Positions 442 to 21,802 are shown, counted from the stretch's first letter. The stretch: DNA of 64,000 nucleotides from Thermoprotei archaeon (GCA_003649205.1 QMRC01000002.1:160001-224000), one strand, 5' to 3'. Translations and numbers: made by a program. The notes: generated by a model from the sequence alone, not told the origin.

Positions 442-897
442 CTAGCTCATGGCTTTGCCTCTCCTCTCGAGCTTCTTCGAGATCCATCCTTCATTTACTT
501 CTACTAGTTCCCATTCCTTCTTGAATTCTTGAAAGTACTTCTTGGCTTCTATCCAGAATCCATTGTCGTACACTACAATACCGTGTTCGAGGGCATCTAG
601 TACTGCTATGTCGAAGTTCTTTAGTGCTGTGTAGAACTCGTCTTCTGTGTATATCCATGGTTGTACCATTGGGGTGTGGGGCATAAGCTTGAATCTCTCT
701 AATCCCTTTGGTGCTGATTTGAGTACGATGAGGATATCTATATCGCTCCAAGGTTTCCAGCATCCTCTAGCTCTAGAGCCAAATACCACTATTGACCTAA
801 CGTTACTTCCTAGTCTCTTCAGTACTTCATCCCTAAACTTCAGTACGTAGACTCTGACATCTGTACCGAGTTCATCAGTACCTAAGTACTTAAGCAC
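442..897 (-). CDS. Minimal nucleotidyltransferase (MNT) antitoxin-type protein
   Basis: GSRARG...SDIDIL pol-beta NTase motif; overlaps the HEPN gene. Confidence 0.85.
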   Translation of the reverse strand: MLKYLGTDELGTDVRVYVLKFRDEVLKRLGSNVRSIVVFGSRARGCWKPWSDIDILIVLKSAPKGLERFKLMPHTPMVQPWIYTEDEFYTALKNFDIAVLDALEHGIVVYDNGFWIEAKKYFQEFKKEWELVEVNEGWISKKLERRGKAMS

Positions 898-1265
898 CTC
901 ATCACCTCCGATACAACTTTTCTAGCTAATTCAATAGCTTTCTTAGCTACTGTCTCCGTGTACTCGATTCCATATCTCTTCCTAGCGTCAGGATAACGTG
1001 AAGCGTAGTAGTGTATCGTCAATTCTCTAAGCTCTTCATCACTCACTGTTAGCTCTAGTCCATATGCTCTAGCTCTTGAGTACAGTAGACATAGGTCATG
1101 TATTCTGAGGAAGTTGCCATGACGTAATAGGTATGCTTTGAGAATGTGTTGAATAGCTTGTTCAGCGTGAAAGCAAGCATATGCGTAATCTCCTACATAA
1201 TACCTCTCCTCTGCTCTCTTGAGCTCTGAGCGACTACTCTCAATCCAGTCCTCTACTGTAGCCAT
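882..1265 (-). CDS. HEPN domain protein (HEPN-MNT pair)
   Basis: ACFHAEQAIQ, IHDL and SRYPD motifs typical of archaeal HEPN proteins; directly upstream of MNT. Confidence 0.85.
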   Translation of the reverse strand: MATVEDWIESSRSELKRAEERYYVGDYAYACFHAEQAIQHILKAYLLRHGNFLRIHDLCLLYSRARAYGLELTVSDEELRELTIHYYASRYPDARKRYGIEYTETVAKKAIELARKVVSEVMRCLST

Positions 1266-1359: not shown

Positions 1360-2334
1360 TTAAGCTTTCCTGCATTGTTTCATCGACTCTATGATCTTGA
1401 CTACTTCTCTAGCGAGTTTGATCTTGGATTTTAGATCAGTCATTACTATGTTGCTTGTGATCACGTAGATTTCGAGTTCCTTACTTATCCTCTCGCCTAC
1501 TTCTCTATCTCTCACATCTACTACCATGGCGTCTACGTAGTCTCTAAGTATTTCAGCTACTGAGTAGCTCGATGGTTCGTAACCTATTGCTTTTAGGAAT
1601 TTATGGAGTGGTCCTGAGAATGGTCTATTACCTACTATTGGTGATATCGCTACTACAGGTACTTCACCGCGTAGCTCCTTTATCTTCTCACCTAGTCCCT
1701 GTACCTTCAGTATAGGTAGTATGCTATTTACCGTGTTACTTGGTCCTATGATTATGGCGTCTGCTTGTTCTAGTGCTGTGATTACGTCTCTTGTTACCTT
1801 TGCTTTCTCTAGTCCTAGGAATGTTATTCCGTGTACTTCAGGTTCCATTCTGTACTTGACTAAGTACTCCTGTATGTGGAGGTTACCTATGTTCGTGAGT
1901 ACGTAGGTTTCTACGTGGTTATCTGTTGCTGGTAGTACTGTGGCTCTGATACGTAGCTTACTTGCTAGGTACTTCGTTACCTGCGTTAGTGTGTACCCTC
2001 TCTTCATGAGTAGTGTCCTTGTAATGTGTGTTGCTAGGTCTCTATCACCGATGTTGAACCATGTCCAGTCTAGTCCGTACTGTTTTGCTTGTTGTAGGAA
2101 GTTGAAGGTGTCTTCTTTGATTCCCCAGTACTTACCTGTATCGAGGATGTTTGCGAAGAGGTATAGTACTGTATCTACGTCAGGTGCTATGTAGAGGTCA
2201 TTCCACCAGAAGTTATCTGCTACGTTGACTACGACAGTTATATCTTCTTCAGGGACGACATGTCTTAGACCTTCGAGTAGTTTGGGCGTTCCTGTTCCAC
2301 CGCTTAGAACTACGAGCTTCACCTTGATTCCCAC
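1360..2334 (-). CDS. cofD: 2-phospho-L-lactate transferase (F420 biosynthesis)
   Basis: LSGGTGTPK, PDVDTVLY, WFNIGDRDLATH, IIGPSN motifs. Confidence 0.93.
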   Translation of the reverse strand: MGIKVKLVVLSGGTGTPKLLEGLRHVVPEEDITVVVNVADNFWWNDLYIAPDVDTVLYLFANILDTGKYWGIKEDTFNFLQQAKQYGLDWTWFNIGDRDLATHITRTLLMKRGYTLTQVTKYLASKLRIRATVLPATDNHVETYVLTNIGNLHIQEYLVKYRMEPEVHGITFLGLEKAKVTRDVITALEQADAIIIGPSNTVNSILPILKVQGLGEKIKELRGEVPVVAISPIVGNRPFSGPLHKFLKAIGYEPSSYSVAEILRDYVDAMVVDVRDREVGERISKELEIYVITSNIVMTDLKSKIKLAREVVKIIESMKQCRKA

Positions 2335-2430
2335 TTTGTTTGTGTTGCTTGGGATTTTTAGTTAAGTGCCGTGTCTACTCCTTGGGGTAGGCTCAAATAG
2401 ATGGGTTGTTACTTGTGTTGAGGGGTTGGG

Positions 2431-3408
2431 ATGTGTTCTCAAGTCTCTATCTCTATCCTGGTTGAGCGTGGTCTATGTTCTAGCTGTGGTGCTTGTGCTG
2501 CAGTGTGTCCCTTCTCAGCTATTGAGTTTCCAGAGCCTTTCTCATTACCTAGGGTAATTGGTGATAAGTGTAGGTTGTGTGGTCTCTGCTATAGGATCTG
2601 TCCTCAGGTAGGTATTGTTGATGAGGTTAGGGGGAGAGAGGTTAAGCCGTTGGCTACGTACATGGCTAGGTCTACTCTAGCTGAGGTTAGGGGGGTTGCT
2701 CAGTGTGGTGGTGTTGTCACTACATTAGCTATGTACTTACTGGATAGGAGGTTCGTTGATGCTGTTGTGTCTGTTGGTAGGGATGAGTACTGGCGTCCAG
2801 TACCTAAGCTCATTACTGATAAGTTGGGGGTTCTCGAGGTAGCAGGTTCGAAGTATACCTACGTATCGGTTCTTACATTGTTGAGAGATGTCGTTAGAAG
2901 TGATGCTATTAGGTCGGTAGCTGTTATTGGTCTTCCCTGTCATATGAGAGCTATTGAGAAAATGAGGAGATTGAAGTTAGCTGCCTCTCAGAAAGTTAAG
3001 TACCTCATCAGCATCTTCTGCATGCACAACTTCGAATATGGTGTAGTGAAGTACATTGTTGAGAAGTTTGGTCTCGATATCAAGTCCATCTCTAAGATGG
3101 ATATAAAGAGGAGGTTCATAGTTAAGTTAGTGGATGGTAGGGTTCTCGAGGTACCTCTCAAGGAGTTAGATCAGTTCGTTAGAGCTTGCTGCCGTAGCTG
3201 TCCAGAGTTTGTCTCCACAATAGCAGATGTCTGTGTCGGTAGTGTAGGTGCTGAAGAAGGTTGGAGTACCGTATTCGTGATGTCTGAGAGAGGTAGAGGA
3301 ATTGTTGAAGATGCTGTGAGAGATCAATACCTTGAGGTTAAGGAGCTACCTGAAAAGGCCATGAAGATTGTGGCGAAGTTAATCAGTATGAAGGTTGGAA
3401 GTAGATAG
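2431..3408 (+). CDS. FrhB/FdhB-family F420-dependent oxidoreductase subunit with N-terminal 2x[4Fe-4S] domain (FpoF/FqoF-like architecture)
   Basis: CSSCGACAAVCP and CRLCGLCYRICP, then AQCGGVVT, GSKY, GLPCH, IFCMHNF, CCRSC, ADVCVGSVG. Confidence 0.88.
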   Translation: MCSQVSISILVERGLCSSCGACAAVCPFSAIEFPEPFSLPRVIGDKCRLCGLCYRICPQVGIVDEVRGREVKPLATYMARSTLAEVRGVAQCGGVVTTLAMYLLDRRFVDAVVSVGRDEYWRPVPKLITDKLGVLEVAGSKYTYVSVLTLLRDVVRSDAIRSVAVIGLPCHMRAIEKMRRLKLAASQKVKYLISIFCMHNFEYGVVKYIVEKFGLDIKSISKMDIKRRFIVKLVDGRVLEVPLKELDQFVRACCRSCPEFVSTIADVCVGSVGAEEGWSTVFVMSERGRGIVEDAVRDQYLEVKELPEKAMKIVAKLISMKVGSR

Positions 3409-3468
3409 TAATAACTCAAGTAGCTAAACTTTATTTCCTGAACCAATGTCAGTTAGAGAGGGATCTAG

Positions 3469-5511
3469 TTGAGTAAGCCACTTCACGTCAAGATCGGTAA
3501 GCTCGAGTCCCCTCCCTTAGCTGCTGAGAACATTGATCTGGTCATCGGCTCTGTAGTTATTGAGGAGGAGTGGGAACCAACTGGTCCTGCTTCAAGACCT
3601 TCACTTCCAATGCTGAGGGCTTGGGATCTATTCCTCTTGAAGAGGTATGAACCTATGTACGTAGTTGAGAATAAGCTACAGCACGCAAAGACCTTACTCA
3701 CACTCACGGTATCCGGTGCATTAGCCTACCTAGCACTAGCTAAGAGAAGGCTTAGAGCTGCGTACCGTAGGTTAGGTGAGGATGCCCCAATTGAGTTAGG
3801 TGTTGCTGTTGAGGCTCCACTCACTAGGTTACTGATAGGTATTAGGCCAAAGGTATTGACTGAGCTTGAGGAGCCCCTGAGGTATGCTGAGGAGCAGATA
3901 GTCGAGATCAGTGCAGCTATCCACAGTAATCAGGAAGCTAGTATCGAGGACTTGGAGTCAAAGATGTTTCACATAGGTACAGCTACGCTACTGCTAACTG
4001 AGGTAGCTGAGATAGCTAATTTAATGCTAGTTCCGAAGGGTATTAAGGTACCTGAAAAGCTTGAGTTTGGAAAGGCACTCATTGACTTCACGAAACCTGT
4101 AGTACTTATCCTCGGTGATGTTCCTGAGGTAGTAGATGTTGTTGAGTACTGTGAGAGAAGTGGGTATATCGATAAGATCGAGATCGTGACTGGTGGATGC
4201 TATGCACTAGACACCGTTAGGGTTGGTAAGTACTTGGTTAAGGTCGTTGGTACGCTCGATGACGTTAGGGATGTTGTCGGTAGAGGACTTGTGGACGTAC
4301 TCATCGTTGGTGAGCAAGGTGCTATACCAGACATAGTTGAGAAAGCCAAGGAGAAGGGTACTGTGGTGATTACGACAACAGAGAGAGCTTACCTAGGTCT
4401 ACCAGACCTTACAGGTGTGGATACTGAGAAGATAGTTGAAGCTGTTAAATCAGGTACAGTGAGGGGATTTGCTGTCTTGGATGCACAGAAGTTAGCTGAG
4501 GTAGTACCTAGAGTAGCACTGGTAGTTTATGAAGCTAGAAAGGAAGTGAAGCCTAAAGCTCTTGAGGAGGTAAAGGAGGTCTTTAGCAGGGAGAAGTACG
4601 TAATGAAGCCACCACTCGGACCTGTTCCTGAACCTGTTATCAGGGATCTAGGTGTTCCTGTCGTGATGGGTACTATACCTGGTATAATAGCTGTTGTTGG
4701 ATGTAGTAACTATGGACCTAGCTCACTTGAGGAACTTGGTGAGATCCTTGAGGAGCTGTGTAAGAGGAACTTCCTAATCCTCACGACAGGCTGTACAGCA
4801 ATAGCACTGTCCAAGTACAGGACTAAGGAGGCAGGTCACGGGCTTTACGAGGACTTCCCAGATCAGACATTGGTGATGGGATCTCCAACAGCTATAGCAC
4901 ACATAGCTGGACTCGCACTCAAGGTACCACAGATCTTCGCTAGAATGCCGCTTAGATCAAATGCACCTGCACTAGTCGACTACCTACTTAATAGAGTTGG
5001 TGCTGTTGGTCTAGCATGGTCAGCACCGCTCGAGAGGGATGCAGCAATTGCATGGGGCGTACTAAGGTGTGGTGTACCAGTTGTTGCTGGTCCAGCACTA
5101 GCACCTGTTGGTAGGTTATTCCTTGGTGATCCAACTAAGCCAGAGAAGTACGTGATATACGACAAGAGGACGAAGAAGAAGGTATTCGTTGGACCAGTAC
5201 CTGAGCACCTACTGTGTCTAGCTAAGAACAAGGACGAAGCACTGATACTGATAACTAAGCTAGTTATGAGGGCTAACGATGGTCACAGCGCTAGGGCTAT
5301 CAAGGCATGTCACTACGTCGACATGTACAGGAAAGTACATGGAACACTACCACCAGACCTACCGAACTACATCAGAGCTGAAGCAGACATAGCGATAACG
5401 GTCAAGGACGAGGTCATGAAGTTCCTACAGGAGAAGGGCTGGAAACCACTAGAGGAACCATTGGTAGACCCAACGTGTCTACCGCTACTCCAAGAAATAA
5501 CAAGTTTATAA
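3469..5511 (+). CDS. cdhA: CdhA (ACDS alpha/CODH) homolog lacking most metal-cluster ligands; predicted catalytically inactive
   Basis: CdhA-like blocks EEWEPTGP..LRAWDLFLLKRY, GTIPGIIAVVGCSNY, DYLLNRVGAVG, PVPEHLL, DPT. Only 9 Cys and no CxxC; C-cluster motifs read GDV, GGCY, GEQG, GCSN, GCTA, GSP. Confidence 0.88.
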   Translation: MSKPLHVKIGKLESPPLAAENIDLVIGSVVIEEEWEPTGPASRPSLPMLRAWDLFLLKRYEPMYVVENKLQHAKTLLTLTVSGALAYLALAKRRLRAAYRRLGEDAPIELGVAVEAPLTRLLIGIRPKVLTELEEPLRYAEEQIVEISAAIHSNQEASIEDLESKMFHIGTATLLLTEVAEIANLMLVPKGIKVPEKLEFGKALIDFTKPVVLILGDVPEVVDVVEYCERSGYIDKIEIVTGGCYALDTVRVGKYLVKVVGTLDDVRDVVGRGLVDVLIVGEQGAIPDIVEKAKEKGTVVITTTERAYLGLPDLTGVDTEKIVEAVKSGTVRGFAVLDAQKLAEVVPRVALVVYEARKEVKPKALEEVKEVFSREKYVMKPPLGPVPEPVIRDLGVPVVMGTIPGIIAVVGCSNYGPSSLEELGEILEELCKRNFLILTTGCTAIALSKYRTKEAGHGLYEDFPDQTLVMGSPTAIAHIAGLALKVPQIFARMPLRSNAPALVDYLLNRVGAVGLAWSAPLERDAAIAWGVLRCGVPVVAGPALAPVGRLFLGDPTKPEKYVIYDKRTKKKVFVGPVPEHLLCLAKNKDEALILITKLVMRANDGHSARAIKACHYVDMYRKVHGTLPPDLPNYIRAEADIAITVKDEVMKFLQEKGWKPLEEPLVDPTCLPLLQEITSL

Positions 5512-5555
5512 GTCTCGAAGCAAGAGATTATGAAGGTGATTTACCTATCTCCAAA

Positions 5556-5569
5556 CAACTATATAGTTG
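5556..5569. promoter_or_regulatory. Perfect 14-bp palindrome containing a TATA-like core upstream of cdhC
   Basis: CAACTATATAGTTG, ending 19 bp before the cdhC ATG. Confidence 0.35.
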
Positions 5570-5588
5570 GTTAGGGTGATGTGTAGCT

Positions 5589-7010
5589 ATGTCCTCTAGC
5601 ATAGTACCCGGATTTCCCGTCGACATTGGACCTGCGTACGAGGGTCAGAGAATTAGGAGACCAGACATGTACGTTGAGTTCGGTGGACCCAAGATAGCTC
5701 AGAAGTTCGAGCTACTAAGGGTTAAGAAGTTGGAAGAGGTTGAGGATGAGAAGGTTGAGGTTATTGGACCTGACCTACCTGAGCTGAAAGAGGGTGAGAG
5801 CTATCCAATCGGTATAGTCATTGAGGTAGCTGGTGCAAAGCTCACACCTGAACTAGAGGGTGTTCTCGAGAGGAGAATTCACGACTTCCTAAACTACATC
5901 GACGGTGTCATGCACGTAGGTTCGAGAGCAGACATTTGGATTAGGATAAGTAAGAAGGCATACAGTAAAGGTCTCAATACACTGAAGCTAATTGGTCTAG
6001 CTCTGATCAAGCTATTCAAGAAGACCTTCCCAATGATTGAGAAAGCACAGGTAAAGTTCATAACAGATCTTGAGAAGGTTAAGGAGTACCTAAGTGAGGC
6101 AATGAAGGTTTACGAGGAGAGAGATAAGAGGGCACTAGCTCTAACAGATGAGGAGGTAGATACATTCTACGGCTGTATCCTATGCCAGTCCTTCGCTCCT
6201 GGTCATGTCTGCATAATAACTCCTGAAAGACCATCAGCATGCGGTGCTGTGTCCTGGTTTGATGCTAGAGCAGCAGCCATGATCGATCCCAAGGGACCAA
6301 TATTCCCAGTACCTAAAGGTAAGTGTCTGGATCCAGTTAAGGGAGAGTACGAAGGTGTTAACGAGAAGGTTAAGGAGAAGTCACTTGGGAATGTAGAGAA
6401 GGTGTACCTATACAGCATGTTCGACTATCCAATGACATCCTGTGGTTGCTTCGAAGCAGTAGCATTCTACATACCTGAGGTCGATGGTATAGGTATAGTC
6501 CATAGAGGATTTAGAGGTAAGACACCTATTGGACTAACGTTTGGTCAGTTAGCAGAGCAGGTCGGTGGTGGTAGACAGGTAAGTGGCTTCCTAGGCATAT
6601 CGATACTGTACATGAGGTCCAGGAAGTTCCTAATAGCTGATGGTGGATGGAAGAGAGTTGTGTGGCTACCGAGCGAGCTTAAGGAGAAGCTAAAGGATGT
6701 GATACCACCAGATCTCTACGATAAGATAGCTACTGAGAAAGATGTATCAACTGTTGAGGAGCTAAAGAAGTGGTTGATCGAGAAAGGTCACCCAGTAGCA
6801 GAGAAGCTAAAGGCTGCTGAAGCAGCACCCCCAGCTGCACCACCTGCCGCACCTCCCGCACCTGCCGCTCCAGCTCCTGCACCAGCACCGCCAACAGCGG
6901 TTACGGTACCAGCAGCGGCACCAGCAGCACCACAGGTACCCATTAGGATAGTGCTGCACAATGCTAGGATATACATCAAGAGAGTAGTTGTTGTGAAGAA
7001 GGGTACCTAG
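5589..7010 (+). CDS. cdhC: Acetyl-CoA synthase, ACDS beta subunit
   Basis: A-cluster motifs intact: GCILCQSFAPGHVC..ACG and SCGCFE; ADGGWKRVVW; Pro/Ala linker followed by a short C-terminal beta motif. Confidence 0.96.
   Translation: MSSSIVPGFPVDIGPAYEGQRIRRPDMYVEFGGPKIAQKFELLRVKKLEEVEDEKVEVIGPDLPELKEGESYPIGIVIEVAGAKLTPELEGVLERRIHDFLNYIDGVMHVGSRADIWIRISKKAYSKGLNTLKLIGLALIKLFKKTFPMIEKAQVKFITDLEKVKEYLSEAMKVYEERDKRALALTDEEVDTFYGCILCQSFAPGHVCIITPERPSACGAVSWFDARAAAMIDPKGPIFPVPKGKCLDPVKGEYEGVNEKVKEKSLGNVEKVYLYSMFDYPMTSCGCFEAVAFYIPEVDGIGIVHRGFRGKTPIGLTFGQLAEQVGGGRQVSGFLGISILYMRSRKFLIADGGWKRVVWLPSELKEKLKDVIPPDLYDKIATEKDVSTVEELKKWLIEKGHPVAEKLKAAEAAPPAAPPAAPPAPAAPAPAPAPPTAVTVPAAAPAAPQVPIRIVLHNARIYIKRVVVVKKGT
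6811..6940 (+). repeat. Low-complexity Pro/Ala linker coding region inside cdhC
   Basis: Encodes AAEAAPPAAPPAAPPAPAAPAPAPAPPTAVTVPAAAPAAPQVP. Confidence 0.8.
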
Positions 7011-7021
7011 GGTGTTCATTC

Positions 7022-7240
7022 ATGAGTACGAGACAGGAGGGGAAGAGGAGTACTGAGCAAGGTAGTGAACTAGGTACTGATCTCCTCAACTTCCTCCTTT
7101 CTCTTGTTGGTTTAGGAGCTACTGTTGAACTTCACGGTGTGACGATAACAGCTGAGAAGGTTGTCATAACGAGAATTGAGGGGAGTGGTAGTGAGTCAGG
7201 AGAGAAGGGTAAGGGAAGAGAGGAGAGAAGCAGAAGCTAG
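7022..7240 (+). CDS. Small hypothetical protein of the cdh operon resembling the CdhD N-terminal / CdhC C-terminal motif
   Basis: ATG 11 nt after the cdhC stop; LLNFLLSL..VELHGVTITAEKVVI aligns by eye with CdhD LLKLLST..LEFEDVVIDARELTI. Confidence 0.7.
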   Translation: MSTRQEGKRSTEQGSELGTDLLNFLLSLVGLGATVELHGVTITAEKVVITRIEGSGSESGEKGKGREERSRS

Positions 7241-8561
7241 GAAGGTTGTTGCGGATTTACTCAAGCTACTGAGTACAGCTGATAGACTAGAGTTCGAAGA
7301 CGTTGTGATTGATGCTAGGGAGCTAACTATCGAGTTCATACCCCCATCAGCTCCAACAGGTCCAACGTACCTGAAGCTAACCGTTGAGCCGGTTGGTGTA
7401 CCACAGCCACCAGGTGGTAAGCTAGAGTTCATCCTTGAGGTAACTCCAACAGGCTTTAGATTACTCACACCACCAGTACCTGGTGCTGTACCTATTACAG
7501 TACCGCCCATAGCTGCTGTCCCTAAGCTTGTTGAGTTTATTAAGGTGGAGTACAAGTACCCAAGTCTTGAGTTCAAGGGGTCAATTGCCGAGGTCAAGAT
7601 AGGTGCTACGAAAGCTGAAGGTGGTACGAGATCTACAGTTATTAAGATTGGTGGTGACAATAAGCCCCCTATCTTCAGGTTCCTAGGTTACGTAGTTAAT
7701 AGACCGAAGGTAGCACTAGACGTATTCGATACAACTATCCCACTACCTAGAGCTGTGAGAGATGCGTACGGTGATGTTCTCTCAAATCCCTATGAGTGGG
7801 CAAAGAAGTGTATCAACGTGGTTAAGGCAGATCTAATATCGTTTCACCTAGTCAGTACTGACCCCGGTATCAAAGATGTATCACCACAAGAAGCAGCTAA
7901 AGAGGTTGAGCAGATGCTCCAGACAATAGACATTCCATTCATTGTCGGTGGTTGTGGTAATCCAGTTAAGGACCTAGAGACCTTCGCGAAGGTAGCTGAG
8001 GTAGCTGCTAACGAGAGACTCGTACTGGCATCAGTTACCTTCGGTATGAATATACCTAAGTACGTTGAGGTTGTTAAGAAGTTCAATCACGTAGCACTAG
8101 CCCTCATATTCATGGATGTGACTCAGGCTAAAGCCATATGTCGTAGGTTGATGGATCTAGGTCTCAGCAAGGATAGGATAATTCTCGACCCGACAACGGC
8201 TGCATTAGGGTATGGTACAGAGTACTCCTTTAGTGCAGCTGAGAGAATTAGGTTAGCTGCTCTTAGAGGTGACGAGGATCTACAGGTACCAATGAGCTGT
8301 GCCGCGACAAATGCTTGGGCTGCTAGAGAGGCGTGGATGAAGCTAGATGCGTGGGGTCCAAGGGAGTGGAGAGGTCCTCTCTGGGAAGCTGTTACAGCTA
8401 TGACGATGTTGCTTGCTGGTGCGGATCTCTTCATGATGATGCATCCACTAGCAGCGTCCATAGTTAAGTCTGTTACTGAGTTCATGGAGAAGCAGACGGT
8501 TAGGGATGTTATTGAGAAGGAGGTTTCTGAGTACTATAGCTGGGTGACTAAGAGGTATTGA
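7176..8561 (+). CDS. cdhD: Corrinoid FeS protein small subunit, ACDS delta (true start probably GTG at 7191)
   Basis: IGATKAEGGTRS, DPTTAALGYGTEYS, ERIRLAALRGD, NAWAAREAW, RGPLWE, LFMMMHP. Confidence 0.95.
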   Translation: MRGVVVSQERRVREERREAEARKVVADLLKLLSTADRLEFEDVVIDARELTIEFIPPSAPTGPTYLKLTVEPVGVPQPPGGKLEFILEVTPTGFRLLTPPVPGAVPITVPPIAAVPKLVEFIKVEYKYPSLEFKGSIAEVKIGATKAEGGTRSTVIKIGGDNKPPIFRFLGYVVNRPKVALDVFDTTIPLPRAVRDAYGDVLSNPYEWAKKCINVVKADLISFHLVSTDPGIKDVSPQEAAKEVEQMLQTIDIPFIVGGCGNPVKDLETFAKVAEVAANERLVLASVTFGMNIPKYVEVVKKFNHVALALIFMDVTQAKAICRRLMDLGLSKDRIILDPTTAALGYGTEYSFSAAERIRLAALRGDEDLQVPMSCAATNAWAAREAWMKLDAWGPREWRGPLWEAVTAMTMLLAGADLFMMMHPLAASIVKSVTEFMEKQTVRDVIEKEVSEYYSWVTKRY

Positions 8562-8577
8562 GAGGAGGTGACCTTAC

Positions 8578-10008
8578 GTGCCTAGGAGGATTAAGCCTCT
8601 TGATGTCTATAGGTTACTTCCGAAGCTAAATTGCGGTAAGTGTGGTGAACCGACGTGCATGGTCTTTGCTACTAAGCTGATTGAGCGACAGACTACACTC
8701 GATAAGTGTAGGCCTCTCTTCGAGGATCCTAGATTTAGGGAGAACTTGAGGAAGTTAATGGAGTTGTTGAGGCCTCCTGTTAAGGAGGTTACCATAGGTG
8801 TTGAACCTAATGCTGTTAAGGTCGGTGGCAAGGACGTTGTGTATAGGCATGAATGGACTTGGAGGAATCCAACAGCTATAGCTCTCGATGTTCACGATGG
8901 GATGGGTGATGAAGAGGTTGAGAGGAGGATTAAGTTTGTTAATGAGTGGTTCTATGAGAGGATTGAGAAGAGACTCGGTATTGACTTACTTGCTGTTAGG
9001 TGTGTCTCTGGTAGTGCTGAGCGATTTGTGAAGTTTGTCGAGAAGGTATGTAAGTTAACTAGTAAACCGTTGATCGTGTGTACTCTTGATCCAGCTACTC
9101 TCGAGGAAGTATTGAAGAGGATTGGTTCTCGAAGACCTCTAATCTATGCTGCTACTGAGAGAAATTGGAGGGAGTTCGCTGATCTAGCTGTTAAGTGGTC
9201 TTGTCCTTTGGTTGTTTCAGCTCCTAACGACCTATCTAAGTTGAAGAGCTTAGTGGTCTCGATAGTGAAGAACTTTGGTTATGAGGAGCTGGTACTGGAT
9301 CCAGGTACCTTGGTTAGTAATGGTGGTTTCCTAGATACGATATCGAACTTTACGGCTCTCAGGTACTCAGCTATTGAGTTTGGTGAGAGGGAAGTAGGTT
9401 TTCCACTCATGGCTATACCAGCTACTGTCTGGATCTTCGAGAGTGGTGGTACTGAGGAGCTGGAGTTTAGGGAAGCAATTATAGCGTGTTCGTTAGTAGC
9501 TAGGTACGCGGATATTCTAGTAATGCATAGCTTAAGCCCATGGGTCTACATGGCTGTTCTCTGTCTGAGGGACTGCCTGTACACTGATCCACGAGTTCCA
9601 CCATCAGTTAAACCTGGACTGTACGAGGTGGGTAAACCAACACCTGAATCTCCTCTCGTAGTTACCTGTAACTATGCACTCACAGTATCCCTAGTGAGAG
9701 GAGATCTTGAGAAGAGTGGTATCGATGCTTGGCTACTGGTGATAGATACTGAGGGTACCTCTGTAGCATCAGCTGTTGCTGGTAAGAGATTCACAGCGGA
9801 TAAGATAGCTGAGGCGGTTAAGGAGCTTAAGTTAGAGGAGAAGGTCAAGCACAGGTCGCTGGTGATACCTGGCTACGCAGCTAAGATAGCTGGTGAACTA
9901 GAGGATCTACTACCAGGGTGGAGGGTCTTCGTAGGTCCTAGAGAGAGTAGTGATCTACCTAAGTTCATTAGGGAGATTTGGAGTAAGGAGGTCCTGGGTA
10001 AGGCGTAG
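8578..10008 (+). CDS. cdhE: Corrinoid FeS protein large subunit, ACDS gamma
   Basis: LPKLNCGKCGEPTCMVFA..C [4Fe-4S] motif, YRHE, YTDPRVP, NYALT, VGPRESS. Confidence 0.95.
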   Translation: MPRRIKPLDVYRLLPKLNCGKCGEPTCMVFATKLIERQTTLDKCRPLFEDPRFRENLRKLMELLRPPVKEVTIGVEPNAVKVGGKDVVYRHEWTWRNPTAIALDVHDGMGDEEVERRIKFVNEWFYERIEKRLGIDLLAVRCVSGSAERFVKFVEKVCKLTSKPLIVCTLDPATLEEVLKRIGSRRPLIYAATERNWREFADLAVKWSCPLVVSAPNDLSKLKSLVVSIVKNFGYEELVLDPGTLVSNGGFLDTISNFTALRYSAIEFGEREVGFPLMAIPATVWIFESGGTEELEFREAIIACSLVARYADILVMHSLSPWVYMAVLCLRDCLYTDPRVPPSVKPGLYEVGKPTPESPLVVTCNYALTVSLVRGDLEKSGIDAWLLVIDTEGTSVASAVAGKRFTADKIAEAVKELKLEEKVKHRSLVIPGYAAKIAGELEDLLPGWRVFVGPRESSDLPKFIREIWSKEVLGKA

Positions 10009-10010
10009 GC

Positions 10011-10787
10011 ATGAGTATACTGATTGCTGTAAGCGGTAAGGGTGGTGTAGGGAAGACCGTCATCACAGCACTCATGCTAAAGGCAATTACTGAGGAAGGT
10101 ATTGAGGATAGGGCTATCCTAGTGATTGATGCTGATCCGGATGCTAATCTAGCAGACGTACTTGGCATACCACTTGATGTAAAGAAAACTCTTGGTTACG
10201 TAGCTACTGAGTTCAAGAAGGAGCTAGAGAAAGCCTCTATATCCGAGGTCGATAAAGCTACAGTACTTCAGACACGAGTACTTGAGGTAGTTCAGGAACT
10301 ACCTAAATTCGACTTCCTCGTTATGTGGAGAACTGAAGGTGAGGGCTGTTATTGCTTTGTTAACGCAGTTCTCTCCAATGTTCTTGAGTGGTTAATGGAT
10401 CAGTACGACATAATCCTAGCTGATTGTGAAGCAGGGTTAGAGCACTTCAATAGACGAGTTTTCAAAGCAATAGACTACTTAGTACTGGTTACTGATCAGA
10501 GTAAAGCGAGCTTCGATACTGTTAAGAGAGTTCTAGATGTTGTTCATGAAGTGGGTATAAGGGTTAGGAATGTGGGTATCGTAGTCAATAAGTTCAGAGA
10601 ACACTATAGAGAACGAGTTACGAAACTTGCTAGTGAAATTGGAGTAGAGATTTGGGGATTCGTACCATATAGTGAGGCCATTGAGGAATTTATGTCTGAA
10701 GCTAGATCACTGATGGAGTTACCGAGAGATGAAGCTGCTTATGTAGCTGTGAAGGAGGTACTCAAGAAAAAAATAGGTATTTTGTAG
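10011..10787 (+). CDS. cooC: CooC/AcsF-type nickel-insertion ATPase
   Basis: GKGGVGKT, IDADPDANL, EGCYC, DCEAGLEH. Confidence 0.9.
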   Translation: MSILIAVSGKGGVGKTVITALMLKAITEEGIEDRAILVIDADPDANLADVLGIPLDVKKTLGYVATEFKKELEKASISEVDKATVLQTRVLEVVQELPKFDFLVMWRTEGEGCYCFVNAVLSNVLEWLMDQYDIILADCEAGLEHFNRRVFKAIDYLVLVTDQSKASFDTVKRVLDVVHEVGIRVRNVGIVVNKFREHYRERVTKLASEIGVEIWGFVPYSEAIEEFMSEARSLMELPRDEAAYVAVKEVLKKKIGIL

Positions 10788-10796
10788 GTTCCCGTT

Positions 10797-11795
10797 CTAG
10801 CTCCTTAACTTCTTGACTATTTCACCGATTAGTGCAAGAGCTTCTTTCTTCTTCGGACCTAGTGGTGATCCCATTACAATGTGAGTTATTCCAGCCTTGA
10901 TTAACTCTCTAAGTTTCTCAATGCACTCATCTGGTGAGCCTGAAATTGAGAAGTAGTCTAGCATTAAGTCATCTACGTTCTCAGCAGCTTTCTTGAAGTC
11001 TCCCTTAGCTAGTGCTTCTCTGATAGTGCTTACCTTACCTAGATCTATTCCTCGTTCCTTCAGTAATGTATCTGGTGCTCCTGCAACTATGAACGCTACT
11101 ACTAGTCTAGCTGCATCCTTTGCCTTCTTTGAATCTGGTGCTACTGAGAAGCAGGTATACGCTACAATGTCTATCTTGCTGAAGTCCTTTCCAGCTGCTT
11201 CAGCACCCTTCTTAATTAGTGGTATTGCCTTCTCGAAGTCCTTGGGGTGTGATGCGTTTATCAGTACTCCATCACCTAGTTGACCAGCTAGCTGAAGCAT
11301 CTTAGGTGCTTGGGCACCTATGTAAATTGGTATTGCTCTACTTGGCTTGAAGTTTAGTCTTGCTCCCTTAAGCTTGAAGAACTCACCTTCGAAGTTAACT
11401 ACTTCACCAGCAAGTAATCTCCTAATGACTGTCACAGCTTCTCTAACAGCTGTTAGTGGTTTCTTCCTCTCAATACCAATAGCTTCGAGTGTTGCCTTAT
11501 CACCTGAACCTATACCGAGAATAGCTCTTCCACCACTAACCTCATCTAGTGTAGCTACTGCAGCAGCTGTCCAAGCTGGGTGAATAACATATGGGTTTGT
11601 AACACCTACACCTAGAGTTATTTTACTTGTCTTGATAGCCATCATGGTTAATGCGATGTAGACAGTACGGTTGCAGTAGTGATCTGTTACCCATATACTA
11701 TCTAGGCCATTCTGCTCGGCAATGATTGCATACTCGACTAATGTTGAAATAGCTCTATCAGGAACCAGCTCTATACCGAACTTCAAGTTAACCAC
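10797..11795 (-). CDS. mer: F420-dependent methylene-tetrahydromethanopterin reductase (Mer)-like, luciferase superfamily
   Basis: FGIELVP, WVTDHY, GVTNPY, GIGSGD, IYIGAQAPKML, DGVLINASHPKDF, GSPLGP. Confidence 0.85.
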   Translation of the reverse strand: MVNLKFGIELVPDRAISTLVEYAIIAEQNGLDSIWVTDHYCNRTVYIALTMMAIKTSKITLGVGVTNPYVIHPAWTAAAVATLDEVSGGRAILGIGSGDKATLEAIGIERKKPLTAVREAVTVIRRLLAGEVVNFEGEFFKLKGARLNFKPSRAIPIYIGAQAPKMLQLAGQLGDGVLINASHPKDFEKAIPLIKKGAEAAGKDFSKIDIVAYTCFSVAPDSKKAKDAARLVVAFIVAGAPDTLLKERGIDLGKVSTIREALAKGDFKKAAENVDDLMLDYFSISGSPDECIEKLRELIKAGITHIVMGSPLGPKKKEALALIGEIVKKLRS

Positions 11796-12087
11796 ACAGT
11801 ATCCCCACCTATGGGGGTCCAGACTTATTGAAGAGAGAAATACATTGTTATTAAAAATTACGATGTAGCGAATTTACTTAATTGCTAGTGCTAGTGGTAA
11901 TCAATGGTTGGTTTGATTTGGTGTGATTAATTGCTTTTAGTAACTGATGGGTTTGCTTGAGCTACTATAATTGGTAATTTTCCTCTCGTGTATCTGCTTC
12001 AAGTCAAGTACTTATACTTCTGAAGCTGTTTCTGGTTGAGGGTTAAGTACATTAGGTAACGAAGTCCATACCTAGCTACTGTAGTCT

Positions 12088-12870
12088 TTGGTGATCTCCA
12101 TGGGTGAAGTACCTAAGGTAGAGATAATTGGGTTACTCGACTTTCCCGATGTTAAGCCAGGTGATGACCTTGGAAAGCTAATTGTCGAGGTTGCTAGGAG
12201 AAACGGTATTGAGTTCATGGATGGTGATGTAATTGTTATCGCTCAGAAGATTGTCTCTAAGTCCGAGGGTAGAATAGTTGATCTGCAGACCGTTAAACCG
12301 TCTGAGTATGCAGTGAAGTTGGGTGAGGAACTAGGTAAGGACCCTAGATTAGTTGAGGTGGTGCTTAGGGAATCTCATGAGGTTTTGAAGGCTGAGGCAG
12401 GGCACTTGATCTCGCTGACAAGACATGGATTCGTATGTGCTAATGCTGGTGTTGATCTATCTAATGTAGATGGTAGTGGGTTAAGAGTAACGTTACTACC
12501 TGTAAATCCGGATGAGTCAGCTAGGAGAATTAGGGAGAGAATTAAGGAGTTGACTGGTAGGGATGTTGCTGTTGTCATAACAGATACCTTCGGTAGACCA
12601 TTTCGTGAAGGTGTTGTGAATTTTGCAATAGGTATATCCGGTATCCATCCATTTCGTGACTACATAGGTAAGGTAGATAGGTACGGATACGTAATGAGAG
12701 TGACTAAGGTCTGCATCGTTGATGAGGTAGCTGCAGCGGCGGAGCTAGTTATGGGACAAGGTGCTGAGGGTATTCCAGTTGTAGTAATTAGAGGGCTCAG
12801 GTACGAGAGAAGGGATGACGCAAGTATTCAGGAAGTTGTTATGCGTAAGGAGAAGTGGTTATTCAGGTAA
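12088..12870 (+). CDS. cofE: Coenzyme F420-0:L-glutamate ligase
   Basis: AQKIVSKSEGR, CANAGVDLSN, PDESARRIR, DTFGRPFREG, DEVAAAAELVMG. Confidence 0.93.
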   Translation: MVISMGEVPKVEIIGLLDFPDVKPGDDLGKLIVEVARRNGIEFMDGDVIVIAQKIVSKSEGRIVDLQTVKPSEYAVKLGEELGKDPRLVEVVLRESHEVLKAEAGHLISLTRHGFVCANAGVDLSNVDGSGLRVTLLPVNPDESARRIRERIKELTGRDVAVVITDTFGRPFREGVVNFAIGISGIHPFRDYIGKVDRYGYVMRVTKVCIVDEVAAAAELVMGQGAEGIPVVVIRGLRYERRDDASIQEVVMRKEKWLFR

Positions 12871-12920
12871 TCAGCTCGTCGCGAGCTCGATCACTGCTCA
12901 CGCTGGGACGGCTTCATCAC
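12871..12920 (-). ncRNA. Box C/D sRNA candidate
   Basis: Minus strand: GTGATGA-agccgtcccagc-GTGA..GTGATCG-agctcgcgacgag-CTGA. Confidence 0.7.
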
Positions 12921-13032
12921 CAAAACCTCATAGAGATACGTAGGTATATATTCCTTACCTTAGTGTTGACAGAAAAGGGGTAAACGCTTATAAAGGGCAT
13001 GTAGTCCTATTCTACGGCACCAACCACCTTGG

Positions 13033-14442
13033 GTGATGTTAATGAGTAGCAAATCCGCAGAGAAGAGTCCTATCTACTACCTCTTCAACCCTCGTAGCAT
13101 TGCCGTGATAGGTGCTTCTCGTGATCCCAAGAAGATAGGTTATCAGATTCTCAAGAACATCATTGAGTATGGATTTAAGGGAAAGGTCTATCCAGTCAAC
13201 CCGAAAGCTGATGAGATTCTCGGACTAAAGTGCTACAAATCCATTCTCGATATACCTGATGAAGTTGATGTCGCTGTCATATCGATACCTGCTCAGTACG
13301 TATTACCTGTTGTTGAGGAATGTGGTAAGAAAGGTGTTAAGGCTCTAATAGTGATATCCTCTGGCTTTGGTGAGGTAGGTAATGTCGAGCTTGAGAGAAA
13401 GCTAGTTGAGACAGCTAGGAAGTACGGAATGAGGATACTTGGACCCAATATCTTCGGTCTCTACTACGGACCTGCTAGGTTGAACGCAACCTTTGGTCCT
13501 AAGGAGGTTATTCCAGGTAACATAGCATTTGTCTCACAGAGTGGTGCTCTAGGTATAGCACTCATGGGGTGGACCATTGCAAAGGGCGTAGCTCTCTCAG
13601 CTGTTGTCAGCATGGGTAACAAGGCAGATATAGATGATGCAGATGTCCTTGAGTACTTCGAAACTGATCCTAACACCAAGGTCATACTCATATACATGGA
13701 GGGTATTAGACCAGGTCTCGGTAGGAGGTTTGTTGAAGTGGCTAGGAGAGTATCTAAGAAGAAGCCAATCATAGTTATCAAGGCTGGTAGAACAGAGAGA
13801 GGTGCTGCTGCAGCAGCGTCGCACACTGGTGCGCTTGCAGGAGCAGATGCAATATACAATGCGGCATTTAAGCAAGCAGGTGTGCTCAGAGCGATAGGTT
13901 TTGAAGAAGCATTTGATTGGGCTAAAGCACTGAGCATGCTACCACCACCTAAGGGTGAGAACGCAGTAATCATAACGAATGGTGGTGGTGCTGGGGTAAT
14001 GGCTACTGATGCAGCTGTTGAGTGCGGTATTCGATTAATGGAGATGCCACCAGATCTACAGGAGAGGTTCAGGAAGTACATGCCACCATTCGGGAGCCCG
14101 AAGAACCCAATAGACTTGACAGGTCAAGCAAGTGAAGAGGCGTACAAAGGTGCTCTCCTAGAAGCATTCAATGAACCTAGAATTCACTCCATAATACTAC
14201 TGTACTGTCAGACAGCAATTACAGATCCAGAGGTGCTTGCTGATAAGATAATTGAGGCTTGGAATGAAGCTAAGGAGAGAAAGCCTATGGTAGTCTCATT
14301 CATTGGTGGAATTGAGTGTGATAGAGCTATGGCGAAACTAGATAAGGCTGGTATCCCAGCATACCCATCTCCAGAGAGAGCTGTTAGTGCTCTCAGTGCT
14401 GTCTATAAGTGGGCTAGATGGGCAGGTTACGTGAAGGAGTAA
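13033..14442 (+). CDS. acdA: ADP-forming acyl-CoA synthetase, alpha subunit
   Basis: PRSIAVIGAS, ILGPN, SQSGALG, phospho-His motif ASHTGALAG, TNGGGAG, NPIDLTG. Confidence 0.92.
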   Translation: MMLMSSKSAEKSPIYYLFNPRSIAVIGASRDPKKIGYQILKNIIEYGFKGKVYPVNPKADEILGLKCYKSILDIPDEVDVAVISIPAQYVLPVVEECGKKGVKALIVISSGFGEVGNVELERKLVETARKYGMRILGPNIFGLYYGPARLNATFGPKEVIPGNIAFVSQSGALGIALMGWTIAKGVALSAVVSMGNKADIDDADVLEYFETDPNTKVILIYMEGIRPGLGRRFVEVARRVSKKKPIIVIKAGRTERGAAAAASHTGALAGADAIYNAAFKQAGVLRAIGFEEAFDWAKALSMLPPPKGENAVIITNGGGAGVMATDAAVECGIRLMEMPPDLQERFRKYMPPFGSPKNPIDLTGQASEEAYKGALLEAFNEPRIHSIILLYCQTAITDPEVLADKIIEAWNEAKERKPMVVSFIGGIECDRAMAKLDKAGIPAYPSPERAVSALSAVYKWARWAGYVKE

Positions 14443-19438: not shown

Positions 19439-20842
19439 TCACTGACCAACCTTAATTAACTTGTACCTCTCGTAGATTAGCTCTACAGTACCATCTTTAA
19501 TGTAGAATTCAACGTAGAACTTCCTACCCCATGAAGTGGTGTAGAATATAGCTCTCTCCTCACTTAACTCAATAGGTATTAGAGGTACAATGCTCTCCGT
19601 GTACCTATCTCTACGCTCTACATACAGGAAGTCACCACGTTTCCTAACGTAGAGCTTCATAGTACCCCTGTACGTCTCGTACGTACCCTCAAGTCTTTCA
19701 AGCAATCTCTCAGTTCTAATGAATGGTAGCTCCTTCTCAGGATCTCTACCCATCATTAGTGCGAGAGCGTACATCCCTATGTTTGAGAGCGGGTAACCAG
19801 ATGCATTAGCTAGTACTGCAACACCTATCCTCTCCTCCGGTACATAACCAATAAATGCGGTGTAGACCAGAACTGAACCACTGTGCTCAATCAATCTCCT
19901 ACCTAGGAAGTTCTTGTGAATGATTAGTCCGTACCCATAGTACTCCTCACCAAGAAGCTCAAAAGGTAGCTTTACATGTGGTTTCTCCATTAACTCTATC
20001 ATCTCTTTGCTGAGTACCTGTACATCACCTAACTTACCACGGTTAATGTACATCATTAAGTATCTCGAGAGATCCATTACATTGCTGAGTAAACCACCAT
20101 CAGCAGTTACACCATAGGGGAACTTACTAGCTATGTACCTACCCTCCTTATCCAGTATGTATGGCGTAGCTACGTCTGGGTCCTTCTCGACATCCTCCTT
20201 ATGGAAGTACGTTCTCTTCATACCGAGAGGCTCCAGAATTCTCCTCTTGACATAGTCCTCATACCTCATACCACTGACCCTGGAGATTATATACCCCAAC
20301 AGTACGTACCCTTCATTGAGGTAGAAGAACTTCTCACCAGGTCGTGAAACAGCCCACTTCTCTGAATCCCTCATGAATGAAATCACGTCCTCAGGTGAGG
20401 CTAGTGGTAGCCAAGTAGTATCGAGACCTAGTACACCAGATATGTAGGCTTCAGCATAGGCTAGTGCTGGGAGACCTGTCGTGTGAGTTAGGAGGTGGTG
20501 AACCCTTATTGGTTCTCCAAATGGCTTTATATCGAGAGGAACGTACTTACTCACAGGATCATCGAGAGATAGTTTCCCCTCCTCAACTAATTGAAGAGTA
20601 GCTATTGCTGTGAACGACTTAGTTACAGAGCCAATACCGTAGATTGTGTGAGGTGTTGCGTGTAGACCTTGATCCACATCTCTAAATCCAAATCCACGAG
20701 CATAGATAACCTCGCTATCCCTAACTAGAGCAATACTGAGACCAGGAATCTTTGTCTTAGCTATCTTCTCCAATATGAAAGACTCTAACTTACCTATATC
20801 TATGGATACCATGGTCTGAACCAAATTACAGGTTATAACCAC
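19439..20842 (-). CDS. Serine hydrolase, beta-lactamase class C family (Pab87-like peptidase)
   Basis: SVTK (SxxK), HLLTHTTG, YLN (YxN), HSG, plus a C-terminal beta domain. Confidence 0.87.
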   Translation of the reverse strand: MVITCNLVQTMVSIDIGKLESFILEKIAKTKIPGLSIALVRDSEVIYARGFGFRDVDQGLHATPHTIYGIGSVTKSFTAIATLQLVEEGKLSLDDPVSKYVPLDIKPFGEPIRVHHLLTHTTGLPALAYAEAYISGVLGLDTTWLPLASPEDVISFMRDSEKWAVSRPGEKFFYLNEGYVLLGYIISRVSGMRYEDYVKRRILEPLGMKRTYFHKEDVEKDPDVATPYILDKEGRYIASKFPYGVTADGGLLSNVMDLSRYLMMYINRGKLGDVQVLSKEMIELMEKPHVKLPFELLGEEYYGYGLIIHKNFLGRRLIEHSGSVLVYTAFIGYVPEERIGVAVLANASGYPLSNIGMYALALMMGRDPEKELPFIRTERLLERLEGTYETYRGTMKLYVRKRGDFLYVERRDRYTESIVPLIPIELSEERAIFYTTSWGRKFYVEFYIKDGTVELIYERYKLIKVGQ

Positions 20843-21118
20843 ATAAATAAAGATCTACCCTTTCACCAGATCTTCAGAACTCATAGCTAACACCATACAC
20901 ACCCTTATCCTAGTAACAGCACGTCCTACAACTAATAGGAGCATTAATGTACTTACTCAAGGACTAAATTCCACATACTAAGAGCAACTCTAGACATAAT
21001 ACTCGCAAACGAATTGAAGAGGTGACAACACTCGTAGAGGGTATGTACGGTAATGTGAACCCTACGCGTCAAGTAATTACTGGGTAAGAGATGAGAGCTA
21101 GTGATGAGACTCGCCCTA

Positions 21119-21697: not shown

Positions 21698-21802
21698 CCT
21701 ACTTTGAACTCCTTACACGGATAAGCTATTGCAAGTTAAACTCTCCTATTTACTTCGACGATAGACTTATAGATATTCACAATTTTTTCAAAAGTTACAG
21801 CA

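Follow-up and report, generated by a model that had tools for sequence, protein, structure and literature searches.

A stretch of 64,000 nucleotides from a Thermoprotei archaeon (G000:C2:160001–224000; hereafter the window) carries, at positions 1360–14442, an operon module for acetyl-CoA metabolism. In this module CdhC, CdhD, CdhE and a CooC-type ATPase are intact, and the accompanying alpha-like subunit, here termed CdhA*, has lost most ligands of the metal clusters of a carbon monoxide dehydrogenase (CODH). A second homologue, CdhA2, with the full set of catalytic ligands is encoded 5.5 kb past the end of the window. With a probability of about 0.5, the module belongs to a complete but rewired variant of the archaeal Wood–Ljungdahl pathway, based on tetrahydromethanopterin (H4MPT) and acetyl-CoA decarbonylase/synthase (ACDS), in which the alpha-like subunit has no catalytic role and CODH works in trans.

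The host was placed in a genus of Thermoproteales, which fits the Thermoproteota-like host proposed in the initial annotation of the window. Its genome (G000) comprises 2.07 Mb in 31 contigs and is 93.8% complete with 4.2% contamination. A second genome of the same genus (G001, 71% complete) carries the same operon. Together with 29 other relatives from two families of the same order, mostly closed genomes of ~2 Mb, these make up the 31 genomes covered by the searches of relatives. Genes were called from a listing of open reading frames (ORFs) combined with Pfam and NCBIfam scans, with curated cut-offs for each model. All ten genes that had been assigned to the module are in place and in the proposed order, each with support from both collections (Table 1).

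CdhA* is an alpha-like paralogue without metal clusters

The cdhA gene of the operon had been described as degenerate. Comparison with solved CdhA structures (8riu, 9c0q and 3cf4) and alignments with canonical sequences confirm this and assign the losses to the B/D, E/F and C clusters. The whole N-terminal cysteine motif for the B and D clusters is deleted, as is the ferredoxin-like insert of ~80 residues that carries the E and F clusters. At the C cluster, GHN is changed to G-D (His replaced by Asp), CCTA to GCYA, DEQC to GEQG and GSC to GSPT. Two of the five C-cluster cysteines are replaced; the cysteines of GCSNY and of TGC are retained. In total, three of the six C-cluster ligands are lost, among them the cysteine of the GSC motif, which we take to be the nickel-binding residue. 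Because the B, D, E and F clusters and these three ligands are missing, CdhA* is predicted to be non-catalytic and unable to interconvert CO and CO2. The earlier conclusion that the operon's own alpha subunit cannot serve as a CODH is thus borne out by the lost ligands.

CdhA* is a real gene under purifying selection and no pseudogene. The protein shares 94% identity with its orthologue in G001, and the ratio of non-synonymous to synonymous substitution rates (dN/dS) is 0.107. This value lies within the range of neighbouring housekeeping genes (0.043 for CdhC, 0.084 for truA and 0.131 for a Thi4-like gene). The operon genes as a whole are intact and under purifying selection between G000 and G001, with dN/dS values of 0.04–0.15.

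A search of 5.8 billion clustered proteins gave 53 matches to CdhA* at E ≤ 1e-20. Nine clusters (P0001–P0009, 635–683 aa, 44–100% identity over at least 95% of CdhA*) show the same losses; one of them is labelled 'Archaeoglobus sp.' by its source. The former ligand positions D217, C244, E282, C412, C442 and S472-P473-T474 are invariant in all nine clusters, as is H152, at an overall identity of just 47–54%. In a profile search against 1.84 billion representatives only two clusters scored above 1100 bits, and the next one reached 529 bits.

Other CdhA-like proteins with missing motifs were encountered in these searches. The metagenomic sequences P0049/P0103, P0107 and P0111 (633–695 aa) have lost C-cluster cysteines in ways that differ from the CdhA* clade. 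P0106, P0110 and P0114 keep the full C cluster and lack the E/F insert. It seems that CODH homologues devoid of clusters have originated more than once, separately from the CdhA* clade.

The losses in CdhA* are not evenly distributed over the chain. Mean identities to seven canonical CdhA proteins were calculated by region for CdhA* and CdhA2, giving 52% and 30%, respectively, for the N-terminal peptide, 36% and 21% for the helical region, 31% and 30% for Rossmann-1, 42% and 29% for Rossmann-2, and 49% and 28% for the C-terminus. In CdhA*, the N-terminal peptide, Rossmann-2 and the C-terminus are better kept than the former catalytic core. According to parts of a 2026 preprint on ACDS (PMC13370988), Rossmann domain 2 of CdhA replaces the A1 prismane domain of bacteria in both place and role (CO-transfer state and docking of acetyl-CoA synthase, ACS), and the disordered termini of CdhA and CdhC cross-link. 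CdhA* would accordingly have retained the surfaces for docking and assembly and shed the chemistry. A complex prediction with partial chains (CdhC 1–410 and CdhA* 91–680) gave a median score of 0.28 against a mark of 0.32, which speaks neither for nor against binding.

A ligand-complete CODH homologue beyond the window

Whole-genome searches with hidden Markov models (HMMs) detect only two genes of the Prismane/CODH family in G000, namely that of CdhA* in the window (C2:163469–165511) and cdhA2 outside it (C2:229469–231544). CdhA2 (691 aa) has the motifs IGHN, CCSA, DEQC, GCPEY, GCTA, GSC, LHFGQE and TEKA in both G000 and G001. The histidine and five cysteines of the C cluster, the acid-base histidine and lysine and the four cysteines of the B cluster are all present, and the shortened insert contains two CxxCxxC ferredoxin motifs. 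Only both D-cluster cysteines are missing. CdhA2 thus has the C-cluster, acid-base and B-cluster ligands expected of Ni-CODH clade A; its TIGR00314 score (231 bits) is below the curated cdhA cut-off (781). The dN/dS value between G000 and G001 is 0.154. As judged from these motifs, CdhA2 is the only ligand-complete CODH homologue in the genome. The initial annotation had inferred a CODH-independent system from the window. This view is not borne out: CODH independence is not established, because CdhA2 has the full catalytic ligands.

The hypD gene directly upstream of cdhA2 is bona fide (TIGR00075, 437 bits, cut-off 193). On contig C6, in the hypE/hypF locus, a degenerate HypD scores 117 bits, which is below the cut-off, and is 28% identical to the first HypD; its CGTHEH and GPGCPVC motifs are lost. 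It is followed after 11 nt by an ORF of 293 aa that is 32% identical to residues 501–688 of CdhA2, lacks the GSC cysteine and has only one other relative in a large protein database (75% identity). The two HypD-CdhA2 pairs probably go back to one duplication and reflect one old adjacency rather than two independent ones. A functional tie of CdhA2 to hydrogenase maturation is a serious possibility.

Canonical cdhA and cdhB were found neither in G000 nor in G001. The chance that both genomes miss canonical cdhAB through incompleteness alone is ~2% (a rough estimate). Related families that bear the Wood–Ljungdahl pathway have a canonical cdhA above the cut-off with cdhB beside it. As regards the components of ACDS, a CdhC with A-cluster motifs and the corrinoid subunits CdhD and CdhE are present, the operon has no alpha subunit with complete clusters, and the epsilon subunit CdhB was not found in the genome. 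The initial annotation had also stated that a complete methyl branch and a canonical cdhAB elsewhere in the genome would make the pathway an ordinary one. The complete methyl branch was found; canonical cdhAB was not.

The methyl branch is complete

Within the window cdhB, cooS, mtd, mch, ftr and fwd are absent, as had been noted before, according to the whole-genome HMM searches and a tblastn search of the window. The latter gave no match to the genome's own Mch, FwdA, FwdC, FwdDB and Ftr or to the CdhB proteins of relatives. The pathway is nevertheless not truncated on the methyl side. A block on contig C5 comprises an mptN-like gene, mch, fwdC, fwdA, a fwdD-B fusion, a CofE-like ORF and ftr. 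The Fwd, Ftr and Mch proteins of this block all score above their cut-offs (TIGR03121, TIGR03122, TIGR03129 for the fwdD-B fusion, TIGR03119 and TIGR03120), and Ftr occurs on C5 only.

F420-dependent methylene-H4MPT dehydrogenase (Mtd, PF01993) has no match in G000 or G001 and was matched in all four of the Wood–Ljungdahl-bearing relatives searched. Searches of the two genomes for Hmd and FolD were likewise negative. Both genomes instead encode an MtdA-type NADP-dependent enzyme, which occurs in these two of the 31 genomes only and matches Methylobacterium MtdA (PDB 1lu9/6tge) over its full length (E 2.6e-42). The change from the F420-dependent to an NADP-dependent enzyme is a clean non-orthologous replacement. 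With Fwd, Ftr, Mch, MtdA and Mer the methyl branch is complete.

Serine hydroxymethyltransferase (SHMT) is present in 29 of the 31 genomes and absent from G000 and G001 only. GcvT and Fae were likewise not found in G000 or G001. Serine, glycine and formaldehyde were considered as sources of methylene-H4MPT and set aside, the genes (SHMT, GcvT and Fae, respectively) not being found in the two genomes. This leaves Mer and MtdA as the sole routes to methylene-H4MPT that were identified. The loss of SHMT and the missing C1 genes suggest an unusual C1 economy. A further source of methyl-H4MPT could be a cluster on contig C1 that resembles an Mto system, with an MtrH-like methyltransferase, a corrinoid protein, three methyltransferases of the URO-D family, a transporter of the major facilitator superfamily and a RACo-type activase. 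This cluster, too, would speak against a truncated methyl supply. The Mto system is discussed for Korarchaeia in part of PMC10667645. McrA was not found in G000.

CofG and CofH (Fo synthase) were not found in G000 or G001; CofG is above the cut-off in two relatives (G020 and G022). As cofD and cofE are retained without CofG and CofH, the Fo headgroup may be obtained by salvage, in keeping with the exchange of Mtd for MtdA. Together, the missing Fo synthase and the replacement of Mtd by an NADP-dependent enzyme show a genus in coherent retreat from F420. A second cofE paralogue is located on contig C3. The CofE-like ORF between fwdD-B and ftr may encode a ligase that adds the glutamyl tail to a pterin or to F420; its homologue in G020 (L044:6239–7120, 38% identical) adjoins an FrhB-like gene. 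This ORF had been considered as a stand-in for Mtd and was dropped once the MtdA-type gene was found; G020 has both Mtd and this ORF.

Beta subunits of the ADP-forming acetyl-CoA synthetase (ACD; PF13549) are encoded on C1 and C3. The genome further encodes a Nuo/Fpo-like complex, an A-type ATP synthase and one true [NiFe]-hydrogenase, a four-subunit, NAD(P)-linked, group 3b-like enzyme on C1. Three matches to PF00374 do not represent three hydrogenases, as the two matches on C3 are one NuoD counted twice. Contig C3 (291,428 bases) is its own reverse complement over its full length, a palindromic assembly artefact. Its genes (NuoD, acdB and the cofE paralogue) are counted twice, and the true size of G000 is ~146 kb smaller.

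Synteny and phylogeny of the CdhA forms

The FrhB/FpoF-like protein is encoded by the first gene of the operon and is the sole FrhB-family ORF in G000 (blastp). FpoF/FqoF models match it from end to end, at scores below their cut-offs. In G022, which belongs to another family, an FrhB-like gene is followed by genes for a 766-aa 'type 2' CdhA, CdhC, CdhD and CdhE. In G028 and G030 an FrhB-like gene is followed by a type 2 CdhA gene on short contigs. In type 2 CdhA the motifs for the B, E and F clusters are present, along with five C-cluster cysteines; the histidine ligand (IGES) and the acid-base histidine (TVFRE) are lost. The combination of an FrhB-like protein with a degenerate CdhA is an operon form that is conserved in the order.

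In these three genomes, and also in G020, a canonical CdhA is encoded elsewhere, followed by CdhB in G022 and G020. It exceeds the cut-off in three of the 31 genomes (1104–1112 bits), and the best match in G030 has 630 bits. The cdhAB genes of these relatives are also separate from cdhCDE.

Synteny of the CdhA* clade rests on L011/L036, L012 and L013, three loci from 82 pattern matches. In L013, from an unrelated archaeon, CdhA* is followed by a canonical CdhA (799 aa), CdhB, CdhC, CooC and CdhD. In L012, CdhA* is alone and the FrhB-like neighbour is absent upstream. Elsewhere CdhA* is an accessory paralogue, as it is found beside canonical cdhA-cdhB-cdhC (L013) or alone (L012); in the genus of the window the operon has no other alpha-type gene left.

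A quick maximum-likelihood tree (LG+G4, 102 CdhA rows, with long-branch warnings) places the 11 CdhA* rows in one clade (100*). This clade joins the type 2 row of G030 (96*) and then the canonical CdhA of G020, G022 and G028. A sister relation of CdhA* and type 2 CdhA is tentative, and so is the order of events, because of the long-branch joins in the tree.

Weak matches to TIGR00314 were also observed in open frames of 455–640 aa beside mtd in genus g8 (G022:C15, G028:C56 and G030:C96). Another weak match lies in a 476-aa frame on G001:C113, which has no blastp counterpart among the ORFs of G000. These frames may represent a third Prismane-like family.

Comparison with known systems

The arrangement corresponds in part to archaeal ACDS (CdhABCDE of Methanosarcina and other methanogens; PDB 3cf4, 9c0q and 8riu; described in part in PMC13370988). 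As in those complexes, CdhC, CdhD, CdhE and a CooC-type ATPase are encoded in one operon with an alpha-like gene before cdhC, CdhD has an N-terminal extension and the pathway uses H4MPT. In contrast to archaeal ACDS, the operon alpha subunit lacks any metal cluster, CdhB was not found in the genome, and the sole ligand-complete alpha homologue is unlinked and very divergent.

CdhA* also resembles the A1 (prismane) domain of bacterial AcsB and the clade of prismane-fused CdhC treated in part of PMC13370988, in being a cluster-less CODH-like module beside the catalytic domains of ACS. In bacteria, the A1 module docks ACS to CODH, as described there. Residues 360–578 of CdhA* are similar to the A1 region in the ACS of Clostridium autoethanogenum (6ytt_A 90–298, E 7.9e-6), which may hold equally for canonical CdhA. 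Unlike A1, CdhA* is a separate, full-length alpha-type protein (680 aa) that branches with archaeal CdhA and not with A1 domains.

CdhA2 shows the pattern of Ni-CODH group A-2 among groups A-1 to A-6 of Inoue et al. 2019 (PMC6344411, Table 2), with no D-cluster cysteines, a complete C cluster, the acid-base histidine and lysine and the E/F motifs. None of the Ni-CODH groups in that table lacks both Cys2 and Cys5. CODH homologues with incomplete motifs were discarded in that survey, according to the part of PMC6344411 that describes it.

The homoacetogenic or methyl-oxidising pathways proposed for Korarchaeia, Bathyarchaeia and Lokiarchaeia, as presented in part of PMC10667645, share with the present system an H4MPT branch, an F420 link of the FqoF/FrhB type, ACD, Mto-like methyltransferases and the lack of Mcr. 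They differ in having a complete CdhABCDE and an F420-dependent Mtd, whereas here cdhAB is non-canonical and the dehydrogenase is of the MtdA type. Neither a CdhA paralogue without clusters nor an operon of FrhB and CdhA was found to be described in the open-access literature, supplementary tables being outside the scope of that search.

The incomplete Wood–Ljungdahl pathway of Dehalococcoides mccartyi reportedly has ACS and a corrinoid protein without a canonical CODH partner, and is said to cleave acetyl-CoA with release of CO. The system described here differs from this account: a CODH-family gene with catalytic ligands exists, and the methyl branch is uninterrupted.

Proposed pathway and alternative explanations

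In the proposed pathway CdhC, CdhD and CdhE, together with the CooC-type maturase, would make or cleave acetyl-CoA. CdhA* would serve as a non-catalytic alpha-like subunit that docks or positions CdhC, much as the A1 domain, likewise without clusters, does in bacterial AcsB. CdhA2 would supply or remove CO in trans. Methyl-H4MPT would be formed from CO2 by Fwd, Ftr, Mch, MtdA with NADPH and Mer with F420H2, and also from methylated substrates via the Mto-like system. The FpoF-like protein would connect the F420 used by Mer with ferredoxin or with the Nuo/Fpo-like complex. Acetyl-CoA would be assimilated or converted by ACD to acetate and ATP. Gene content, lost ligands, purifying selection, synteny and gene replacements are established from the sequences, whereas all contacts between the proteins and the activity of CdhA2 are inferred. 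The sequence is compatible with a reductive or acetogenic flux as well as with an oxidative one.

Several observations weigh against this pathway. CdhB is not detectable: PF02552 had no match in G000 (four candidates scored), and the best E was 1.4 when the CdhB proteins of L013 and G020 were used as tblastn queries. With G000 93.8% complete, canonical cdhAB could sit in the gap. In L013, CdhA* is added to a catalytic alpha subunit and is no stand-in for it. CdhA2 is only 28% identical to its best non-self match among 46 matches and sits on a branch of 2.96 changes per site, a divergence that looks like a change of partner or function. Furthermore, the domains of CdhA2 on the docking side are those least like canonical CdhA. 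Its gene is ~58 kb from the end of the operon (cooC end at C2:170787 to C2:229469), and all three candidate starts of cdhA2 lie 56–74 nt within the 3' end of hypD.

In a different reading, possible though on the unlikely side, ACS is uncoupled from CODH; this is the idea of the initial annotation in a more precise form. CdhA2 would serve [NiFe]-hydrogenase maturation or another task together with HypD. ACS and the corrinoid iron-sulfur protein, with the dead alpha subunit and without a CO channel, would carbonylate methyl-H4MPT with free CO or cleave acetyl-CoA, as in Dehalococcoides, yielding methyl- and methylene-H4MPT and releasing CO. The overlap of cdhA2 with hypD, the degenerate HypD and CdhA2-C-terminal paralogue spaced 11 nt apart in the hypE/hypF locus and the extreme divergence of CdhA2 all point in this direction, as do canonical cdhA and cdhB not being found in either of the two genus genomes and Mer and MtdA being the sole identified routes to methylene-H4MPT where SHMT, GcvT and Fae were not found. 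However, the complete methyl branch can make C1 units at every oxidation level from CO2, so that no cleavage of acetyl-CoA is needed, and CdhA2 has all the ligands to make or consume CO, which diffuses within the cell. Nor are the two HypD-CdhA2 adjacencies independent if they stem from one duplication, as is probable, and separate cdh loci are common, the relatives also splitting cdhAB from cdhCDE. A more specific version of this uncoupling is less likely still. Here CdhA2, translationally coupled to HypD, would be a dedicated CO2-to-CO enzyme giving the CO ligand of [NiFe]-hydrogenase to HypC/HypD via its C-terminal domain, as canonical CdhA feeds ACS. ACS would be left with a dead alpha-like subunit and no CO channel, and the degenerate HypD with the CdhA2-C-terminal paralogue would form a second, non-catalytic pairing.

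CdhA* itself could have acquired a new role. Its remodelled pocket, lined by three retained cysteines and invariant Asp, Glu, His, Ser and Thr residues, would then bind another metal centre or ligand for a new reaction or for sensing, perhaps with electrons from the FrhB-like protein. The invariance of the former ligand positions over nine clusters of only 47–54% identity is in line with this idea, and in two families of the order the gene before the alpha-like one is FrhB-like. The sister type 2 has the B, E and F clusters and five cysteines and has lost both histidines. Yet CdhA* has no iron-sulfur relay, the B, D, E and F clusters being gone, and electrons from FrhB could not reach the pocket by the usual path; outside the order, the FrhB-like neighbour is absent upstream of CdhA* in L012. 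A new function of the pocket is improbable. It is most improbable of all that the module is a decaying Wood–Ljungdahl remnant that is out of use. The genus has indeed lost canonical cdhAB, the F420-dependent Mtd, CofG/CofH and SHMT, but Mtd was replaced and not simply lost, the fwd/ftr/mch cluster is intact, and so are the operon genes, at the low dN/dS values given above.

The earlier view of a truncated, CODH-independent system is supported in part, as no canonical cdhAB was found in two genomes of the genus. The methyl branch is complete, however, and the ligand-complete CdhA2 means that independence from CODH is not demonstrated. A truncated, CODH-independent pathway goes too far as a conclusion; the observations behind it are real and unusual.

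Coordinates and neighbouring genes

The genes of the module and the related loci are listed in Table 1. In CdhC, C285-G286-C287 (Cys-Gly-Cys) is invariant in the alignment, and residues 22–442 of CdhD are aligned by NF003375. The CooC-type ATPase (blastp) and mer are single-copy in G000; in L013, a homologue of the ATPase gene is located between cdhC and cdhD.

Table 1. Location of the operon genes and of related loci. Plain positions are counted from the first nucleotide of the window; bit scores are followed by the cut-off of the model.
Feature	Location	Strand	Support and remarks
cofD (2-phospho-L-lactate transferase, F420 biosynthesis)	1360–2334	-	TIGR01819 328.6 bits, cut-off 257; PF01933
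FrhB/FpoF-like F420-binding iron-sulfur flavoprotein, N-terminal 2x[4Fe-4S]	2431–3408	+	PF04432, PF04422, Fer4
CdhA* (cdhA-like, 680 aa)	3469–5511	+	TIGR00314 532 bits in three stretches, cut-off 781
cdhC (acetyl-CoA synthase, A-cluster subunit)	5589–7010	+	TIGR00316 640.5 bits, cut-off 356
cdhD (corrinoid Fe-S protein small subunit), N-terminal extension	7176–8561	+	TIGR00381 389 bits, cut-off 253
cdhE (corrinoid Fe-S protein large subunit), N-terminal Fe-S domain	8578–10008	+	NF003195 538 bits, cut-off 306; PF04060, PF03599
CooC/AcsF-type nickel-insertion ATPase	10011–10787	+	PF01656 (CbiA/ParA); P-loop GKGGVGKT; C-Y-C at residue 113
mer (F420-dependent methylene-H4MPT reductase)	10797–11795	-	TIGR03555 458.6 bits, cut-off 349
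cofE (F420-0:gamma-glutamyl ligase)	12088–12870	+	TIGR01916 293.8 bits, cut-off 181
acdA (ADP-forming acetyl-CoA synthetase alpha subunit)	13033–14442	+	TIGR02717 597 bits, cut-off 567
hypD and overlapping cdhA2	G000:C2:228385–231544 (L004:6385–9544)		4.4–7.5 kb past window end
hypF divergent from hypE, degenerate HypD and 293-aa ORF	G000:C6:13108–18610 (L049:4108–9610)		
MtdA-type NADP-dependent methylene-H4MPT dehydrogenase, 320 aa	G000:C6:21107–22069 (L049:12107–13069)	-	Mpt_N; PF09176 79.6 bits, cut-off 27
CofE-like ORF, 294 aa, between fwdD-B and ftr	G000:C5:86255–87139 (L009:8255–9139)	-	PF01996 E 4.8e-13
Mto-like corrinoid cluster	G000:C1:284299–293557 (L048:8299–17557)		
type 2 CdhA loci, 764–766 aa	L041 (G022:C9), L042 (G028:C2), L017 (G030:C122)		

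The genes on either side are unrelated to the module. Upstream lies a HEPN/nucleotidyltransferase pair; the downstream genes encode a DUF7347 protein, an enzyme of the enolase superfamily and ribosomal protein L16. In the upstream pair (window 442–1265, minus strand) the HEPN-domain protein adjoins a minimal nucleotidyltransferase, an arrangement typical of a toxin-antitoxin-like pair. The region at 19439–22666 encodes a serine hydrolase of 467 aa with the fold of class C beta-lactamases and penicillin-binding proteins, which scores far under all cut-offs. A sulfur transferase of the LarE type (TIGR00268, 291 bits) is encoded there as well; LarE takes part in making the nickel-pincer cofactor.

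Significance

ACDS is among the oldest enzyme complexes, and in textbooks it is a single machine in which the production of CO is coupled to the synthesis of acetyl-CoA. The operon described here offers a natural test of what the alpha subunit contributes beyond catalysis (docking, CO tunnel and assembly) and of whether ACS can work with CO supplied in trans. To our knowledge, the source of the CO ligand of [NiFe]-hydrogenase in anaerobes is an open question, and the neighbourhood of HypD and a CODH homologue bears on it.

For the annotation of genomes, the entry 'cdhA present' would wrongly score this operon as a full CODH/ACS. Conversely, surveys that drop CODH homologues with incomplete motifs, as is stated in part of PMC6344411, miss such paralogues. 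The points of interest are a conserved dead alpha subunit in the operon slot, the order-wide pairing of an FrhB-like protein with a degenerate CdhA, an orphan CODH linked to HypD, and the exchange of Mtd for MtdA together with the loss of Fo synthase.

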